Assembly: GCA_949499105.1 (NCBI GenBank)
Contig: CATEFX010000057.1
Coordinates: 13,336-77,335, forward strand
DNA length: 64,000 nucleotides
DNA from: Formosa sp. Hel1_33_131
Lineage (GTDB): Bacteria; Bacteroidota; Bacteroidia; Flavobacteriales; Flavobacteriaceae
Direction of reading: 5' to 3'
Made by a program: the position numbers and the translations under genes. Each line of letters begins with the position of its first letter. Within the stretch, counting starts at the first letter, position 1. Of this stretch, positions 1 to 23,932 are shown one piece after another. The notes beneath the pieces are model-generated. The model worked only from the letters and a program-made list of their open reading frames with translations. It ran no database searches and was not told the origin of the DNA.

Positions 1-691
1 CTTTTTGAGGTGTTTTTAATTCAAAAAATCCGTGACTTGAAATCAATTCATCGACGCGACCAGAAAAAAGATTGACTCCTTTTCTTAAAACCACCACATG
101 CGTACACACTTTTTCAACTTCATCTAAGAGATGTGAAGCCAGTAAAATTGTAGTTCCGTTTTGGGCGATGGATTTTATAATTTCTCTAATTTGATGAATC
201 CCTTGAGGGTCTAAACCATTTGTTGGTTCGTCTAAAATTAATATTTCTGGGTCATTGAGAAGTGCCGAGGCAATTGCCAAGCGTTGTTTCATCCCTAAAG
301 AAAAGGCACTAAATTTGCTATCTTTCCGATCTATGAGTCCAACGATTTCTAAGGTCTTATTTATGGTGTCATAGGGGATTTCTTTAATTTTACAGACCAA
401 TTTAAGGTTTTGATATGCAGTCATGTACGGATAAAAATTGGGGTGTTCAATAATAGCCCCCACTTTTTTGAGCGCTTGATGCGTTGTCATTGAACCACCA
501 AACCAAGAGAAATTTCCAGACGTTTTATTTACAACGTTTAAAATAATTCCTAAAGTAGTAGATTTCCCACTCCCGTTGGGTCCTAAGATCCCATAGATAT
601 TTCCTTTGCCAATGTTAAATGTTAGATCACTGACTGCTGTTAGAAGTCCGAATTTTTTTGTAAGATTTGAAATTTTAAGAATCGATTCCAA
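1..691 (-). CDS. ABC transporter ATP-binding protein (BcrA/CcmA-like), runs off left edge
   Basis: Manual translation from TTG at 691: MESILKISNLTKKFG...GPNGSGKST (Walker A), FSLGMKQRLAIA (signature), LILDEPTNGLD (Walker B), SHLLDEVE (H-loop). Confidence 0.9.
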   Translation of the reverse strand, partial: MESILKISNLTKKFGLLTAVSDLTFNIGKGNIYGILGPNGSGKSTTLGIILNVVNKTSGNFSWFGGSMTTHQALKKVGAIIEHPNFYPYMTAYQNLKLVCKIKEIPYDTINKTLEIVGLIDRKDSKFSAFSLGMKQRLAIASALLNDPEILILDEPTNGLDPQGIHQIREIIKSIAQNGTTILLASHLLDEVEKVCTHVVVLRKGVNLFSGRVDELISSHGFFELKTPQK

Positions 692-823
692 TGGGCTATA
701 ATTTGGTTAGTTACTATAAGTTTAGACGAGATATTGTCAATTTTGTTACAAGTTAAAAAATAAAACTTAATTTTGGGATTCAAGTTAAACAATGAATTGA
801 GCCTGTTCGAAATTTTATTTTTT

Positions 824-1888
824 ATGAAAGACGATTTAAAAATATCACTTAAAAAACCTTCATACCCTGTAAATACGGGCTTAAAGGCCTATTTACAGAA
901 ATTCAATCGTACGATTCGATTGCCTATTTTTTATGATGATTTACTTCGTTTTCAAGGCTCTGTTGTGGTTTATGATAAAAATGATAAGGATACGCTTTGG
1001 GTCCGAACATATTATAGCGAGTTTGACCGTCAAGAAATAGATTTATGTCTCAAGAAAGTATATACGACCCTGCATTCTGATGGAAATGAAAAGACCATTC
1101 CGTTCTTAAATGTGGATGCCATTGACTATTGTACGTTTGGTAATTCAAAACCATTTCGCATAAAAATCAGAAATATACTCAATGATAATTATGCATATTT
1201 TTATGTTAAAAAGGCGGATGCTTCCCGAATCTATGGTTTGGAATTGGAACATATGCTATCGCCTCATAACTTAAATTTTCTGGTGTTTGAAGACACCCTT
1301 ATTGAAGAGCATATTACAGGGATTCCTGGGGATGTATTTATAGAAACCATGTTGCCAAATTGTACGCCTTCCGAAACATCTCAAATAGCAAAAGAGTTTG
1401 TAAAATTTAATGAACGGTGTATGATTCGTTTGTTAGGAGATATGCGTTCTTATAATTATGTAATTGTTCCAACGCATGACTTTGATCATGTGGTTTACAC
1501 GATTCGAGCGATTGATTTTGATCAACAATGTTATGAAGGGAAATTCAATGTATACCGTCCACAATTTTTCAAAGAAAATTTTAAGATGGTTGATTTGGTA
1601 TCAGGAAAATTTAAAAAGGAATCCATCAATCAGTATAAATTAGAAGAGCGGTCAATTGTTGCAAAACGTTTGATGAGTTTTAAAAACCGAATTGAACGGT
1701 TGATACGCTGTATGATGTCTGATACGCTTTCGACTCCCGAGCATGAAACCTTATTGAAGACTAAAATACACGAATACACTGGAGATGTTCGGTTTTTGAA
1801 CAGTAAAAATATGGGAGAAATTTTAAAAAATTCTTTGAGTTTTGTAAAACGTAATTATCAAACAGAAAATTCGGGAATTTTCTTTTAA
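824..1888 (+). CDS. Conserved hypothetical protein with atypical (PI3K/HipA-like) kinase motifs
   Basis: 371-aa ORF, likely start ATG 824; contains YVKK, LLGDMRSYN and AIDFD motifs. Confidence 0.7.
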   Translation: MKDDLKISLKKPSYPVNTGLKAYLQKFNRTIRLPIFYDDLLRFQGSVVVYDKNDKDTLWVRTYYSEFDRQEIDLCLKKVYTTLHSDGNEKTIPFLNVDAIDYCTFGNSKPFRIKIRNILNDNYAYFYVKKADASRIYGLELEHMLSPHNLNFLVFEDTLIEEHITGIPGDVFIETMLPNCTPSETSQIAKEFVKFNERCMIRLLGDMRSYNYVIVPTHDFDHVVYTIRAIDFDQQCYEGKFNVYRPQFFKENFKMVDLVSGKFKKESINQYKLEERSIVAKRLMSFKNRIERLIRCMMSDTLSTPEHETLLKTKIHEYTGDVRFLNSKNMGEILKNSLSFVKRNYQTENSGIFF

Positions 1889-2403
1889 TTCCAGTTTTCT
1901 TCAAAGTCCAAATGATCGTAATCATCGGTGCCGTATCCATCTTCAAATTCATCAAAAGGATCTTCACCGCCTTCGGCTTCAAATACCTTTTCAGGAGCTT
2001 CGCCTGGAACTTGTCCGTGTACAAAAAGTAAGTTAGGATAATCGGTTCCTTGTGCTTCTTCTACCACCTCGCCCAATTCGACCATAAAAGTCCACATACT
2101 TAGAAAATCATACACATAGATAAGCTTTGTGCGATTTTCAGTGACGGCAGAATTAAGGATCGTTTGGCTCATGAGTTGAATATCACTTCCTCCTTCGCTC
2201 ATATCAAATAAAGAGATTTCTTCGCCTTGATTCCATTCATCATCACTAATGTAAAATGAGGCCATTTCACTGCCATCAAACCCAAAAGATTGGGTGATCA
2301 CATTGTGTAAATCCTCGAGAGTATCAGTGTCTCTGATTTCAATATCTCTAAAAATATCCTCTTTGGTATCGTTGTCTAAAACAACTCTAAATCTAAAAAT
2401 CAT
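1885..2403 (-). CDS. pRiA4b ORF-3-like (IS1096 passenger TnpR family) protein
   Basis: RDIEI..TLEDLHNVI..SFGF and KLIYVYDFLSMWTF motifs; acidic tail. Confidence 0.75.
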   Translation of the reverse strand: MIFRFRVVLDNDTKEDIFRDIEIRDTDTLEDLHNVITQSFGFDGSEMASFYISDDEWNQGEEISLFDMSEGGSDIQLMSQTILNSAVTENRTKLIYVYDFLSMWTFMVELGEVVEEAQGTDYPNLLFVHGQVPGEAPEKVFEAEGGEDPFDEFEDGYGTDDYDHLDFEENWN

Positions 2404-2441
2404 AATTCAATAATATTAAACAAATATAAGATGCATTTTTC

Positions 2442-3476
2442 TTATGCGAGTTGGTTTTGTCTTTTATTATGTAAGACTTCTAGAAGGATATAACTCTGAA
2501 TTCCAAACAGAATCGATGCAATTACCAAATGTAGGGGTTGGCTCAGAAAAGGAAACTCAAAGTAGTACATCAGAATTCCGGTTCCTGCTTCAAGAATGAT
2601 ACAGTAAATCACTAATTTAATTTTGTGATATCCTAATGATTTTGATCGGTTTAGATGCCATAAATAGCCATTTAAAGCTAAGACCAAAATAGAAGTAGAT
2701 CGGTGGATATAAAAATTTAAATCGGGGGAAGCGAGCCAAAGCGCTTTTTGGTAGCCTATCAGTTTTGTTTGCTCATCGACAAATTGCCGAACTTGAGTCC
2801 CTAAAATAATTTGAACTAATGACACTACAAGTGCTAAAACTAAAATATTAAAAAAACGATTTTGATATATCTGAGTTTTATAATTGCTTTTTGATGCAAA
2901 TATAAGATACAAAATAAACGCCACGATGAGTAATGCCATCACCATGTGAATGGTGATTTTATAAGGCGCTAGATTTGAGTCTACCACCGTTTTTCCAAGC
3001 CAAGCTTGAAAGCCCATCCCAAATAGGGTGAGAATGGATACGATCGGAATCCATTTATTTTTTTTCCAAAACCAAAACGATAAGACTGTAAAAATTAAAA
3101 TGGGAATTCCAGATACAACCCCAACCAGTCGATTGATAAATTCTACCCAAGTATGCACGGGGTCATAGTTGGTGTAATCGTGTTTGCTATAGGTCTCCCA
3201 ATTAGTGGTATCAAGGGTGTCACTAGAAATAAAATCAGTTTTGGCAACCAAAAACGCTTCCTGATCTATAAGAATCATCATGCCTTTTTTATACGCATGC
3301 TTGGGTTCAAAATCTAACTGTTTGCTGTCGGTTGGTGGGACATAATATCCAAAACATTTTGGCCAGTCTGGACAGCCCATTCCGGAGCCAGTCATGCGGA
3401 CGATAGCCCCCGCAACAATAACGAAGTAGATGAGTACTAACGCAATTTTTGAGATCGTTCTAAATTTATTTTTCAT
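2442..3476 (-). CDS. ctaA: Heme A synthase, COX15/CtaA family
   Basis: [24 protein letters not shown], conserved His in TM helices. Confidence 0.85.
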
Positions 3477-4908
3477 CGGCGATTTTTAATCCTAAATCAG
3501 TTCCTTTTTTCAACATCAATTCAAAGGCTTTTTGAGGTTCATTTGGAATGACACCGTCCAAAATAGCTTCTTTGATAAATTCTTTAATGACTCCAATCTC
3601 TCTCGAAGGTCCTAGGTTAAAGGTCTTCATAATTGTTTCACCCGAAATTGGTGGTTGGAAGTCCCGCAGTCGGTCGCGTTCTTCCACCTCCACAATTTTC
3701 TCACGAACAAGTTTAAAATTATGGTGATATTTCTTGAATTTGTAAGGGTTTTTGGTGGTGATGTCTGCTTCACAAAGCGTCATTAAATCTTCTGAAAATT
3801 CTCCAGCATCAAAAACCAAACGTCTCACAGCAGAGTCCGTAATATTTTCTTGTGCCAATACAATCGGTCGCGAACTCATAAAAACGAGTTTTTGAACGTA
3901 TTTCATTTTATCATTTAAAGGCATTTTTAAACGCTTAAATAAAAAATAAACCATTTTTGAGCCCTTCAATTCATGCCCATGAAAGGTCCAGCCGACTTTT
4001 TTGCTAAATCGCTTTGTCGGCGCTTTTCCAATATCGTGCAGCAGTGCCGCCCAGCGCAGCCATACATTATCCGTGTGAGGGCAAATATTATCAACCACTT
4101 CAAGGGTATGATAAAAATTATCTTTATGCTTTTGTCCTTCCAGTTCATCGACCCCTTTCAACTCGGTCAATTCAGGTAAGATGCGTTCCAATAAGCCTGT
4201 TTTTTCAAGCAATAGAAACCCAATAGATGGTTTTTTACTTTCTAATATTTTTTGAAGCTCCACGTTGATGCGCTCCTTTGTAATAATTTCGATGCGCTGC
4301 GACTGTTCTTTGATCGCCTTAAAGGAAGTGACTTCAATCTCAAAATCGAGTTGAGTTGCAAAACGAATGGCTCTCAGCATACGTAAAGGATCATCGCTAT
4401 AGGTAATTACAGGGTCTAAAGGGGTTTTGATGCGTTTTTCAGACAAATCCTTCCGTCCATCAAAAGGATCTAAGAGCGTTCCGTAAGTCGCAGTATTTAA
4501 GCTAATTGCCATCGCATTGATTGTGAAATCTCTGCGGTTTTGATCTTCTTCTAAAGTGCCATCTTCTACAATGGGGTTCCTACTGTCTTCGTTATAAGAT
4601 TCTTTTCGAGCGCCTACAAATTCCAGTTCAACGCCTTCATAATTAATCATGGCCGTGCCATAGGTTTTAAAGATTTGAACTTTAGGATTATTAGGAAGGT
4701 TTTTAGCAACTCGTTTTGCAAGTGCGATACCGCTTCCAATCGCCACAATATCAATGTCTTTTTTATGTCCGCGTCCTAAAACAAAATCACGTACAAATCC
4801 CCCAATCACATAGCAATCGACGCCTAAATCGTCTGCGGATTTTGAGATCACCTGAAAAATAGGGGCGGTCACTGCCTGTTTGTAATTCATGTGTTGAGTG
4901 GTTTCCAA
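3466..4908 (-). CDS. cca: CCA tRNA nucleotidyltransferase / poly(A) polymerase family with HD domain
   Basis: [39 protein letters not shown]. Confidence 0.9.
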
Positions 4909-21405: not shown

Positions 21406-22089
21406 ATGGATTTTAAAACGTTTTTATTTAAGTGGTCACCAAATCCCATTAAAGTCATTGCGCCAGCTCTTGATTTTAGTGCCTATGTTTCTATGGACTT
21501 ATCGAAAGATAATTCTGCGCTTCAACGCTTTGATCATAGCAGTTCAGAAGCATGGACCCACTATATCAATGCCTACCTTCAAAGTCGAAATAAATCCATT
21601 GCCTATGGGGGGTATTTAGAAGTACGATCGCTCTACACGAGAAGCGACCATTTTAGCACCAAAAGCGCCTCCGATTCACGAAACATCCATTTGGGTGTTG
21701 ACTTGTGGTGTGCTGCTGAAACGCCCGTCCTCGCGGCCTTTGAGGGAGTGGTGCATAGCTTTCAAGACAATACCAATTATGGCGATTATGGCCCGACCAT
21801 TATTCTAAAACATTGCATTGAGACTGTGGAGTTTTACACGCTCTACGGGCATTTAAATAGGTCCTCAATTAAAACTTTACGTAAAAATTACCAAATATCT
21901 AAAGGACAGGTCATTGGGTGGCTCGGAGGTTCGAAAGTAAATGGGGATTACGCGCCGCATTTACACTTTCAAATCATCAAAAATATTGAATCCTATGAAG
22001 GCGATTATCCAGGGGTGTCTTCTCAAAATGATTTAGCATTTTACCGTGCTAATTGTCCCGATCCCAATTTGATTTTAAAGTTGTATTAG
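21406..22089 (+). CDS. Peptidoglycan DD-metalloendopeptidase, M23 family
   Basis: HLGVD, LYGHL, PHLHFQ. Confidence 0.88.
   Translation: MDFKTFLFKWSPNPIKVIAPALDFSAYVSMDLSKDNSALQRFDHSSSEAWTHYINAYLQSRNKSIAYGGYLEVRSLYTRSDHFSTKSASDSRNIHLGVDLWCAAETPVLAAFEGVVHSFQDNTNYGDYGPTIILKHCIETVEFYTLYGHLNRSSIKTLRKNYQISKGQVIGWLGGSKVNGDYAPHLHFQIIKNIESYEGDYPGVSSQNDLAFYRANCPDPNLILKLY
22030..22089 (+). repeat. Copy 1 of 60-bp direct repeat (3' end of M23 gene)
   Basis: gatttagcattttaccgtgc...aagttgtattag; 53/60 identical to 22607-22666. Confidence 0.9.
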
Positions 22090-22550
22090 CAACAATTTCC
22101 GCCCGGAGTACACTGTGTTTCTGCATTCAAATCCGAGAGTTTGACTTTTGGTTTTTCTGGAATTCCACAGTTATCTTTTGCTAAACAATCGGTTTGTTGG
22201 GTGATGAGTAAAAAGTGTTTTCCATCAAAATCAAGTCCAAATTTACCAATGGTCTCTGCTTGATATTCGACTTCAATCTCTAAGTCTTCGATGTTTAAGA
22301 TTTTTTCAGAAAGCGCAATAATACTCAATAGTTTTCCTGGGTGCAATCGGTGGTCATAGTCGTCTGAATCCCACAGTTGAAAATTGACTTTGGTCTCGTT
22401 TCGGACGGTACCACCACAATCGATGAATTGTTTGTTTATTTTTCCAACTTCCGTCACATGAAAGTGCGTAGGTACCAACGTTCCATTGGGCAATTGAAAC
22501 CCAATGGTTTCTGAATTTTTTAACACGTGTTTGATTTCTGATAATTTCAT
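22086..22550 (-). CDS. DUF6428 family protein (Cys-rich tail; commonly in arsenic-resistance operons)
   Basis: HFHVTEVG, FIDCGG, FQLW, EIEVEYQ, CLAKDNCG...CTPGGNCC; own TATCTTTG promoter motif (+ strand 22573-22580). Confidence 0.8.
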   Translation of the reverse strand: MKLSEIKHVLKNSETIGFQLPNGTLVPTHFHVTEVGKINKQFIDCGGTVRNETKVNFQLWDSDDYDHRLHPGKLLSIIALSEKILNIEDLEIEVEYQAETIGKFGLDFDGKHFLLITQQTDCLAKDNCGIPEKPKVKLSDLNAETQCTPGGNCC

Positions 22551-22606
22551 AGGGCAGTTATTGAGTTGAATACAAAGATAGTTTTTTTGATTTTATTGGA
22601 TGCTTT

Positions 22607-22666
22607 GATTTAGCATTTTACCGTGCAAATTGCCCCGATCCCGATTTGGTTTTGAAGTTGTGTTAA
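22607..22666 (+). repeat. Copy 2 of 60-bp direct repeat (orphan M23 3' end)
   Basis: Translates DLAFYRANCPDPDLVLKLC* versus DLAFYRANCPDPNLILKLY*. Confidence 0.9.
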
Positions 22667-22693
22667 GGGAGAAAAATAGATTTTCCATATTAT

Positions 22694-22824
22694 GTATAAC
22701 GTTTTGTATAAGATTAGTTGCGTGTTTTAAGCACTAAAGTTAGCAAATAAAACACAGATAAAAAGTCCGCGAGGACTTTCGTAAATAGGCTAAAACCAGC
22801 AATTAATTTTATACGGTGTTGGCA
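22694..22824 (-). repeat. attC-like 131-bp imperfect palindrome
   Basis: Minus strand TGCCAAC-acc-GTATAA...TTATAC-aaaac-GTTATAC with central AAAGTCC-TCGC-GGACTTT hairpin. Confidence 0.7.
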
Positions 22825-23477
22825 TTAGTTTTTTTATTCAGTTTAACAATTAAAATCCAAAATAATGAATGTATTAAAAAATTCAAAATGTAATTCCAAA
22901 TCGGATTATCATAAATTAAAGGTATTTGGTATGAAATCCAAGTTACAAAAATTCCAATTGCTCCAATCATTATCAATGAAGCAAACCAGCCTAATATTCC
23001 ACTTGCTGTTCGGCTATCTTTTCCATATAAAGGAAGAAAAAGTAAAACAGGCAAGATTAAAGCAAATAGGTAATTCGATGAAAACGCCATCCAAAAAACA
23101 GAACGTATGGGTTTTATCGTAGTTTTAGTTTCATTATTGACTTGGTTTTCGTTTTGGTCTTTATTGTCAGATTTAAAAGATATGTTTGATAAATTTCGAG
23201 ATAAAAATTCAGTATAATGTTCCTTATTCAGAACTTTGTTTTCAAGTCGAATAATTTTATTCAATTTTAAGGAATCGGTTTCATAGTTCTTTTTAATATT
23301 CTGAATTTTTTCTATTTGATTTATCTTATTATTAGTGTGAAGATTATAACTAAAATTCAAAACTAAATCTGTCAAAATTAAGAACCCTATAATTGAAATC
23401 CCTGAAGCAGTTCTAAATCCCCAAGATTTTGAATTATCAAATAATAAATTAAAAAAATGCTTAATGGATTCTATCAT
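22809..23477 (-). CDS. Hypothetical membrane protein (cassette-borne)
   Basis: 222-aa very AT-rich ORF with about 4 TM segments; C-terminus (ANTV*) runs into the attC-like site. Confidence 0.75.
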   Translation of the reverse strand: MIESIKHFFNLLFDNSKSWGFRTASGISIIGFLILTDLVLNFSYNLHTNNKINQIEKIQNIKKNYETDSLKLNKIIRLENKVLNKEHYTEFLSRNLSNISFKSDNKDQNENQVNNETKTTIKPIRSVFWMAFSSNYLFALILPVLLFLPLYGKDSRTASGILGWFASLIMIGAIGIFVTWISYQIPLIYDNPIWNYILNFLIHSLFWILIVKLNKKTNANTV

Positions 23478-23666
23478 TATGGTTGTTCAGTCAAATTAAT
23501 GCCAACTCGTTATATATCAACAAAAGGGTGTGTTAACGGATATATATTCCGGGATAACACAATGTTTTAGTTGTTATTATATGTAACTGATTTCAGTGCA
23601 AACATCTAGCTTACTCCCCAAATCAATAATTCAAATAAAAAAATCGCTTACATTCGGTCAAGCTAC

Positions 23667-23932
23667 TTATGAAGAATCAGATTTGGGATCTAAGACTTAT
23701 ATAAAAGTAAAAAATAATCACGGATAACCAAATATATACTTGATTATTAACCCTTTAGTTTTGCAAGTTATGAGGATCTAATACGCTCGCAGTCTACACC
23801 GGCTGTAGCTGTCCTAAAATGTATTTTTCTTTCATCTAGATTAAAGCAACTCTTCTTTCATTTTAGGGCTATTTCACTTATTGAGCTGTTCATTTTTTAT
23901 TTTTGCGAAGTCAGGAGACTTCGCAGAGCGGG
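23667..23932. repeat. 266-bp direct repeat, copy A (promoter-like segment plus REP/MITE-like hairpin element)
   Basis: About 6 mismatches to 30386-30651. Confidence 0.95.

Follow-up and report, generated by a model that had tools for sequence, protein, structure and literature searches.

A putative integron-like gene cassette in a Formosa genome and its relation to recombinase-headed arrays in Flavobacteriaceae

An AT-rich open reading frame (ORF) in Formosa sp. Hel1_33_131 is bounded by two complementary boxes and ends in a long imperfect palindrome. This locus raises the question of whether the ORF is the cargo of a mobile gene cassette and, if so, what kind of system would move it. It lies in a stretch of 64,000 nt (hereafter the window), which corresponds to positions 13336-77335 of contig C57 in a metagenome-assembled genome (MAG) of 2.1 Mb in 66 contigs with 86.6% completeness. 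An initial annotation of the window had proposed an integron-like cassette with an unusual recombination site. Our analysis indicated that positions 22698-23580 on the minus strand are very probably a one-cassette array of an integron-like gene-capture system, which is common in Flavobacteriaceae and present across Bacteroidia. Genomes, contigs and loci are cited with the prefixes G, C and L.

The cassette boundaries were located on the minus strand. The box GTTGGCATTA was found at 23506-23497, 19 nt ahead of the ATG of the 222-aa ORF, and TAATGCCAAC was found at 22827-22818, in the last codons of the ORF (T-N-A-N). As the initial annotation had claimed, the two 10-mers are exact reverse complements that enclose the ORF. 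The complementarity with R'' covered 10/10 positions, and the box pair could be extended to 22 nt at 82%. The imperfect palindrome reported at the end of the ORF was also real and measured 123 nt from AAC to GTT. The predicted cassette of about 806 bp was borne out, running from 23505 to 22700 with the crossover placed inside the GTT. Its GC content was 27.4%, compared with 36.8% for the genome. The parts of the cassette are as follows.

23505..22700, minus strand: gene cassette of 806 bp, which starts with the TT of the upstream GTT and closes with the G of the downstream one.
23497..23506, minus strand: cassette 5' box GTTGGCATTA, which, in an excised circle, would supply the 3' half of the site.
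22809..23477, minus strand: cargo ORF, 222 aa, with a hydrophobic C-terminal half and no family in a Pfam search.
22698..22827, minus strand: attC-like site of type A, with R'' TAATGCCAAC, a 3-nt spacer, L'', a variable centre, L', the spacer AAAAC and R' GTT.

Within the type-A site, the AAC occupies 22820-22818 on the minus strand, followed by L'' at 22814-22799 (16 nt), a central hairpin at 22779-22762, L' at 22721-22706, the 5-nt spacer and the R' GTT at 22700-22698. The window contains this one type-A site, one cassette and no recombinase gene. A second cassette beyond the site was sought, and no R'' complementary to GTTATACAT was found downstream.

The palindrome is not single-copy. Six copies of the type-A site were found in the MAG: one in the window, two on C7, two on C55 and one on C24. 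The five outside the window were full copies on short contigs, where they alternated tightly with small co-oriented ORFs, and C7 and C55 showed tandem gene-site-gene-site runs. These three contigs are likely fragments of one recombinase-headed array. When the copies were aligned, the conserved block opened a few bases before ...AAC and ended exactly after ACGTT. A DNA search with a single query gave type-A matches in 128 of the 200 sampled genera of the family, with up to 97% identity and many copies per genome. In G155, at least 19 co-oriented copies were spread over 37 kb; G119 had at least 27 such copies in a stretch of 54 kb. Among the array-bearing relatives, G155, G163 and G166 are complete genomes. 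The repeat divided co-oriented, unrelated ORFs in these arrays, and the proposal of the initial annotation that copies separate unrelated single ORFs was thus upheld. Toxin-antitoxin pairs (Gp49/HTH and PhdYeFM/YoeB) were observed among the array cassettes (L060:11201-11843; L147:7621-8129; L156:1706-2261), and further array cargo comprised DpnII/MboI-type, SLFN/AlbA_2, HEPN_AbiU2-like and DUF3800 genes.

The R' box was compared among 74 unique sites. Position 4 was a purine in 73 of them, position 5 was a purine in 28, position 6 was a purine in 42 and position 7 was a pyrimidine in 39, giving the consensus GTTRnnn. Some site variants of relatives were longer (about 195 nt) or shorter than 123 nt. 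Long gaps in the arrays held divergent site types with the plan AAC-spacer-GTATA...TATAC-spacer-GTT, which the profile did not detect. An Rfam search of the site gave no match at E ≤ 1, and the small arrays of the MAG were likewise unmatched in Rfam.

Further regularities were seen next to the boxes. Positions 10-12 after the GTT were mostly A-A-T (A in 53, A in 72 and T in 63 of the 74), often extending to AATTTGA. In the window cassette (23497-23490), the R''-side partner of position 11 is C, so that the pair reads A.C in the top strand and G.T in the bottom one; the consensus of the repeat family has ACT ahead of the box, which suggests that this pairing is common there. The A-A-T stretch may lengthen the R helix or represent a promoter-like box. 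A sigma-70-type promoter candidate over the 5' box of the window cassette (TTGGCA-18-CATAAT) was discarded because its matches equalled the shuffled expectation. Promoter motifs of Bacteroidota differ from the sigma-70 type. On C7 (reverse complement, about 1746-1960 and 2555-2770; L002/L003), a conserved stretch of about 200 nt without an ORF occurred twice in the small array. It started exactly at an R' GTT (GTTGCACAATTCACC...), its second copy came after a very short site variant of about 50 nt from AAC to GTT, and an Rfam search of the stretch gave no match. The stretch may be a cassette that does not code for protein, or else a regulatory RNA. In addition, many cassettes at about 200-240 kb of G155:C1 (L044, L045) opened with a shared leader, GTTnnnTTTAATGCT..., which suggests a second conserved module directly behind some R' boxes of that array.

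If cassettes were cut and joined within the GTT, the bases after an upstream GTT should pair with those before the AAC of the next site. In 62 neighbouring site pairs, we set the 7 variable bases that follow the upstream GTT against the 7 that precede the downstream AAC, with 8843 non-neighbour site pairs as the control. At least 6 of the 7 positions matched in 33 of the 62 neighbours (53%), compared with 3.1% of non-neighbours. All 7 positions matched in 23 of the 62, compared with 0.7%. The R' and R'' of one and the same site matched each other only at the background level. This pattern was the one expected for cassettes that would be excised and inserted via a crossover in the GTT. The initial annotation had staked its reading on such complementarity around other copies, and the reading held because the complementarity recurred.

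The homologues of the cargo ORF were informative about movement. A large protein collection contained 55 homologue clusters with a patchy distribution, mostly on short contigs, from Lutibacter, Nonlabens, Arenibacter, Polaribacter, Seonamhaeicola and Saccharicrinis. No match was obtained among the 200 sampled genera of the family; this null result is not evidence of absence, because the large protein database holds 55 relatives. Six homologous loci were read, and the 5' box was the exact complement of R'' in five (L147, L149, L150, L152 and L153) and partly so in L155. The box GTTGGCATTA headed the homologous cassettes in L149, L150, L152 and L153. In L150, L152 and L153, type-A sites flanked the cassette on both sides, with GTTGGCATTA/TAATGCCAAC as the boxes. 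The Saccharicrinis locus (L149) had the same boxes around a quite different site body. In Lutibacter (L147), a compensatory double change had occurred, giving GTTGGCTTTA/TAAAGCCAAC. The loci L152 and L153 come from two metagenomes and shared an 859-bp block with 99.07% identity, which ended exactly at ...ACGTT. Their upstream sites were unlike right up to the spacers, and the genes on both sides differed. This meant that the same cassette is present in two different contexts.

The two strands of the site were not equivalent. The bottom strand, which is antisense to the cassette genes, was the more stable one in 77 of 80 unique type-A copies, and the mean difference under DNA parameters was 2.7 kcal/mol. 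Eight pairs of the 16-bp L stem carried compensatory double changes. Among the non-Watson-Crick cells of this stem, read on the bottom strand, 185 were G.T and 4 were A.C. Two positions were G.T in 77 and 79 of the 80 copies, and these are A.C mismatches on the coding strand. Since the non-Watson-Crick positions of the stem are G.T on the bottom strand only, the folded form of this strand is most likely the one that recombines. Recombination of a single bottom strand, as in attC, is by this analogy reasonably likely.

These data also bore on the idea that the palindrome is a structured RNA, either a 3' untranslated region element or a small RNA, and that cassettes are exchanged by ordinary homologous recombination between the repeats. 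Conservation across genera of up to 97% and covarying stem pairs would suit an RNA, and repeats that are 75-97% alike could support homologous exchange. However, the strand asymmetry argues against a structure in sense RNA, and no Rfam family matched the site. Homologous recombination would scatter the breakpoints; instead, identity ended at the GTT, the upstream sites differed up to their spacers, and R' matched the R'' of the next site and not its own. We consider this explanation very unlikely.

The enzyme that would act on the sites was sought at the array ends. A recombinase gene headed the array or lay just upstream of it in 5/5 relatives examined, including G166. In G119, G155, G081 and G163, the best IntI-like match was an ORF of 376-394 aa that opened the array at its 5' end and ran in the direction of the cassettes. 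In G166, the complete genome of Formosa sp. Hel1_33_131, the recombinase has a 391-aa open frame and a 387-aa protein (WP_069676545.1), which was 54% identical to the G155 protein. The catalytic residues R-K-H-R-H-Y were conserved in 29 members. The family was found in 133 of the 200 genera at E ≤ 1e-80. Repeat and recombinase occurred together in 100 genera, the repeat only in 28, the recombinase only in 33 and neither in 39, giving an odds ratio of 4.2 with kinship ignored. At least 576 relatives of the recombinase were found in species-representative genomes, often with the gene at a contig end, and the best 80 of these were all from Flavobacteriaceae or unclassified Flavobacteriales/Flavobacteria. 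In a broader sample, 158 of 301 Bacteroidia genomes had the family, covering most of the sampled families; this tally includes one unpublished positive, G293, on which no specific claim rests. In two loci from other families, co-oriented low-GC ORFs came after the recombinase; L157 has a recombinase of 62% GC, and the ORFs behind it have 31-42%. The crossover rule was obeyed at 7/7 junctions read in these two loci, for example GTTAGCTGCC ... GGCAGCTAAC, and the site bodies were unrelated. The initial annotation had assumed a Flavobacteriaceae cassette-shuffling system served by a tyrosine recombinase encoded elsewhere. A dedicated recombinase and such a system do exist in the family, but the system is not confined to it, and in this MAG the enzyme placed elsewhere was not found in the bin.

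A second link to the recombinase was found directly 5' of the window cassette, where two further features overlap.

23504..23580, minus strand: orphan attI-like site, 77 nt, ending at the crossover GTT (23506-23504).
23505..23800, minus strand: 'type B' module, which combines a secA-flank repeat with the attI-like core and is multi-copy in the genus.

The attI-like site consists of a vestige of the last 12 codons of a recombinase gene (NNN, stop, NIVLSRNI), a hairpin and ...ATATAACGA-GTT. Positions 23580-23504 were 90% identical (69/77) to L065:4788-4864 of G166, which spans the last 12 codons of the recombinase gene, its stop and the first cassette junction. Since these 77 nt resemble the recombinase-proximal site of G166, we infer that an orphan attI-like site precedes the cassette. 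The initial annotation was right that no integrase lies nearby in the window, but the cassette is not headless. When the type B module was translated in search of a dead recombinase gene, the last 12 codons alone were recognisable, with a stop among them.

The site in the window fitted the consensus behind the stops of other array recombinases, TTATCCnGnAA ... ATATAACnA followed by GTT, the first part of which codes for the L-S-x-N that is conserved at the recombinase C-terminus. Behind the recombinase stop in G119 come a short palindrome and then ...CCTAC-GTTGGCAATA, the complement of R'' in the first site. A GTT 10-mer just past the stop with an exact complement downstream was found in 21 of 40 recombinase loci, compared with 7.6% in cross-locus controls, and 19 of these 21 lay at a fixed offset, 27-36 nt after the stop.

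The type B module is about 200-300 nt long, and the attI-like core is its 3' part. With nhmmer, further copies were found in the MAG at C13:39286-39481, C28:106863-107148 and C10:74819-74981. G166 has a copy at L060:8726-8994, directly 3' of a gene for a 1117-aa protein, which we take to be secA. In L062 and L063 of G166, type B modules and type-A sites alternated, all facing the same way (B-A-B-A-B). The two genomes of the genus both have a type B module with the secA flank on one side and a conserved M23-peptidase gene on the other; the M23 identity comes from Pfam for the window gene and from 78% DNA identity for its G166 counterpart. In G166 the module is followed by 5.9 kb of other cargo, namely three unknown ORFs, a Gp49/HTH pair, an ankyrin protein and an outer-membrane barrel, and the first cassette keeps the rule (GTTATGTGC ... 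GCACATAAC). The locus is thus a platform for variable cassettes that has no recombinase of its own. Several recombinase-less platforms per genome, or attI-like cores that act as cassette boundaries, are unmatched in classical integrons.

On the other side of the window cassette, a DUF6428 gene (22086-22550, minus strand, in the region 22030-22666) adjoins the end of the M23-peptidase gene. The Pfam identities of the two genes were confirmed. The DUF6428 homologue of G166 lies at a distant locus. Presumably, a second copy of the last codons of the M23 gene stands beside the cassette, with the DUF6428 gene between it and the M23 gene.

The position of the recombinase was weighed against the view that the cassettes are real but are moved by another enzyme, such as an HUH/Y1 transposase, and that the recombinase stabilises or inverts the array. 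IS200/IS605 elements provide a model of hairpin-guided single-strand transposition, the recombinase enters our scheme as a presumed catalyst, and 28 repeat-bearing genomes were without it. In the four relatives G119, G155, G081 and G163, however, the recombinase lies 5' of the array and is co-oriented with it. Its stop overlaps a conserved site that ends in the GTT of the first cassette, at the fixed offset in 19/40 loci; its catalytic residues are intact, and no transposase gene recurs beside the arrays examined. We give this view a chance that is small, similar to that of the RNA explanation.

A classical integron was a further alternative, with a true IntI in the unassembled part of the genome and the site as an unusual member of the known attC family. 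The plan R''-L''...L'-R', the AAC and GTT, the 123 nt and the complementarity across the cassette are those of attC. The MAG is incomplete, and the NCBI name of the array recombinase is 'site-specific tyrosine recombinase/integron integrase'. The protein itself pointed elsewhere. Against NCBIfam NF040815 ('XerA / integron integrase') it scored 223 bits (cut-off 220), whereas array recombinases reached 192-209 bits against the IntI family TIGR02249, for which the cut-off is 265. The TIGR02249 alignment came in two stretches that skipped profile positions 182-239. In the structural comparison with IntI4 (2a3v), residues 181-246 faced 23 query residues, and across proteins 14-23 residues stood against 66 in IntI4. 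The IntI-specific insert is absent, because both the profile and the IntI4 structure show this gap. No protein in the MAG or in the five array-bearing relatives reached the TIGR02249 cut-off, nor did any in 201 genomes of the family, a result without a positive control since the control genomes had no integron. In particular, no IntI was found in the complete array-bearing genomes G155, G163 and G166. The R' consensus is GTTRnnn and not GTTRRRY. The rarity of classical integrons in Bacteroidota, which the initial annotation had mentioned, agreed with the IntegronFinder 2.0 survey: it gave one complete integron in Bacteroidetes, that of Salinibacter, and none of these elements in Flavobacteriaceae (10.1101/2022.02.28.482270). 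A classical integron is therefore highly improbable, less likely than either of the preceding alternatives.

The fold of the recombinase gave a similar picture. The AlphaFold model (mean predicted local distance difference test score, pLDDT, of 82) was closest to XerA (5hxy, 4a8e) and then to IntI4. Both structure models predict that the roughly 90 additional residues at the N-terminus fold into a domain of their own, with the order beta-beta-alpha-beta-beta-alpha and a modelled pLDDT of about 90 over most of residues 10-70. This extension (L065:3665-3940) carries an invariant W-S motif. It had no family in Pfam or NCBIfam, and Foldseek returned nothing at E ≤ 0.001 for the domain. The best VIA-align matches were the N-terminal domains of XPB and T4 UvsW (Z 6.6-7.0, root mean square deviation 1.7-2.0, 56-63 residues), which is at noise level. 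The SMARCAL1 HARP domain was a weaker match (Z 4.3, 49 residues, Foldseek E 0.046). The likeness to XPB and UvsW, whose domains recognise branched or damaged DNA, does not rise above the noise of the tools and is only a hint.

The weakest alternative, a plain intergenic repeat (similar to repetitive extragenic palindromes or miniature inverted-repeat transposable elements, or a terminator) with no role in recombination and a coincidental 10-bp complementarity, would account for the hairpin, which resembles a terminator and has T's behind it on the coding strand, and for a highly repeated element that breaks assemblies, but it has hardly any credibility given the complementarity in 53% of neighbours against 3% of controls, the compensatory double change, the 99%-identical cassette bounded at GTT in two contexts, array copies that all point one way and start beside a recombinase, and a T-run after the hairpin that is unconserved in the family consensus.

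The integron-like gene-capture system would work as follows. A dedicated Xer-like tyrosine recombinase is normally encoded on the 5' side of the array and in the same orientation, and the stop codon of its gene overlaps the attI-like site. This enzyme would be the catalyst, cutting and rejoining somewhere inside the invariant GTT. Recombination of one site with another would release the cassette in circular form, and there its opening bases, GTTGGCATTA, would pair with its R'' TAATGCCAAC and complete the folded site. For the window cassette, the 806-bp circle would have a junction in which ...TAATGCCAAC...ACG is joined to TTGGCATTA. The circle would then re-enter at the attI-like site. By analogy with attC, the substrate would most likely be the single bottom strand in its folded form. 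Because the search of the MAG yielded no ortholog of the array recombinase, the window cassette would either be served in trans by an unassembled gene or be immobile at present.

Several observations weigh against this interpretation. Complementarity failed in 29 of the 62 adjacent pairs, which were mostly more than 1.4 kb apart. Undetected divergent sites probably lie between the members of these distant pairs. The compared copies are related to one another, so the counts overstate their independence. At E ≤ 1e-80, 28 of the 128 repeat-bearing genomes had no recombinase, and 33 recombinase-bearing genomes had no type-A repeats, for which other site types exist. The MAG contained no ortholog of the array recombinase, in a bin that is 86.6% complete and with loci of a kind that assemble poorly; its ordinary Xer-type genes, of 303 and 295 aa, are separate. 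Finally, no recombination product of the window cassette was found in the public-read evidence, which consisted of assembled Logan contigs, and the sole well-supported joint in them was imprecise and did not lie at the GTTs.

This joint was found in two independent marine studies, in which contigs of a strain about 4% divergent joined 22610 to 23929 with 78 other letters between. This joint means that a related strain lacks the M23-end repeat, the site, the cassette and the type B module as one block. It is a strain-level presence/absence polymorphism and not a site-specific excision. Two other joints, 22833-23482 and 22833-22703, were rejected because of their short sides (20-31 letters); these joints probably stem from other organisms or from the inverted boxes. 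In four seawater/marine metagenomes, the summed depth of the site bins 22710-22870 was about 140-4900, compared with 5-27 in the flanks, and the site depth was 20-200 times the flank depth. The contigs parted from the window at 22701-22706, at the R' GTT, as loose ends.

The system was compared with known ones. Integrons are among the closest, above all the sedentary chromosomal ones of the 'inverted integrase' type and their remnants that have lost the integrase (Cury 2016; 10.1101/2022.02.28.482270). The system resembles integrons in that its arrays point one way and consist mostly of single low-GC ORFs unrelated to each other, and in that an imperfect palindrome comes after each ORF, with AAC...GTT as the outer boxes, inner L boxes and spacers that stay unpaired. 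The 123-nt site is within the attC criterion of 57-141 bp. The crossover in the GTT and the complementarity between the first bases of a cassette and its own R'' are also integron-like, as are the primary site that adjoins the recombinase gene and heads the array and the better folding of the bottom strand. Toxin-antitoxin pairs in the cargo recall sedentary chromosomal integrons, and orphan sites without a recombinase recall attC-site clusters that have no integron integrase (CALIN). A CALIN comprises at least two attC sites without an integrase nearby by the default of IntegronFinder 2.0, and one in version 1 (10.1101/2022.02.28.482270). The window, with one type-A site, is below two, and C7 and C55 hold two each. 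In contrast to integrons, the array recombinase is Xer-like, without the IntI-specific insert and with an extra N-terminal domain of about 90 aa. It is always co-oriented with the cassettes, and the attI-like site lies at its 3' side and not upstream of a divergent gene. The R' box differs from the integron box as noted above, the sites are unusually conserved across genera, and attI-like cores are multi-copy and occur away from the recombinase. These comparisons indicated that the element functions like an integron cassette but is outside the integron family as defined by IntI.

The core of the recombinase is nearest to XerA and XerD in both sequence and fold. Xer systems (XerC/D at dif, archaeal XerA and the pdif modules of Acinetobacter plasmids) use double-stranded sites of about 28 bp with two arms, whereas the sites here are folded palindromes of 120-200 nt.

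The closest described arrays are the rAID-1 arrays of gut Bacteroidales (Ross et al. 2019, 10.1101/471110), which have a XerD-like recombinase on the 5' side, then co-directional genes of low GC, and intergenic repeats 'reminiscent of integrons'. They are defined by at least 44% identity to BF9343_RS08045, immunity-gene cargo and at least two co-directional genes, and close recombinase homologues (>50%) are described as restricted to Bacteroidales (10.1101/471110). By described layout, the recombinase-headed, co-directional low-GC arrays of the relatives are alike; the window itself has a single low-GC cassette and no recombinase. The GTT crossover rule, the R'/R'' complementarity and the strand asymmetry are not described in the parts of the rAID-1 paper considered here. 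The cargo also differs, being a putative membrane ORF in the window and restriction, toxin-antitoxin, Abi-like and many unknown genes in the arrays of relatives. A literature search found the rAID-1 preprint as the only related work and no paper describing the Flavobacteriaceae arrays or their crossover rule. The system is most likely a flavobacterial relative of rAID-1, and the rAID-1 arrays of Bacteroidales partly anticipate it.

A broader view can be offered tentatively, as one that we find possible without favouring it. Bacteroidia may hold a second integron-type lineage with rAID-1 as its gut branch, in which a Xer-like enzyme would read folded sites without the insert, possibly via its N-terminal domain, and several orphan attI-like platforms in each genome, among them the one behind the secA flank in the window, would be served in trans.

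Integrons are the textbook gene-capture device and have been considered nearly absent from Bacteroidota. Here, an integron-like cassette logic was found in about two thirds of the sampled Flavobacteriaceae genera and across Bacteroidia, together with a recombinase that is without the domain thought essential for the recognition of folded attC. Current integron finders appear to miss this major class of cassette arrays. If our interpretation is correct, the array recombinases would be a natural comparison for tyrosine recombinases that recognise structured single-stranded DNA, and the rAID-1 arrays would gain a concrete recombination grammar. The system would also account for a large, hard-to-assemble pool of accessory genes in abundant marine bacteria.

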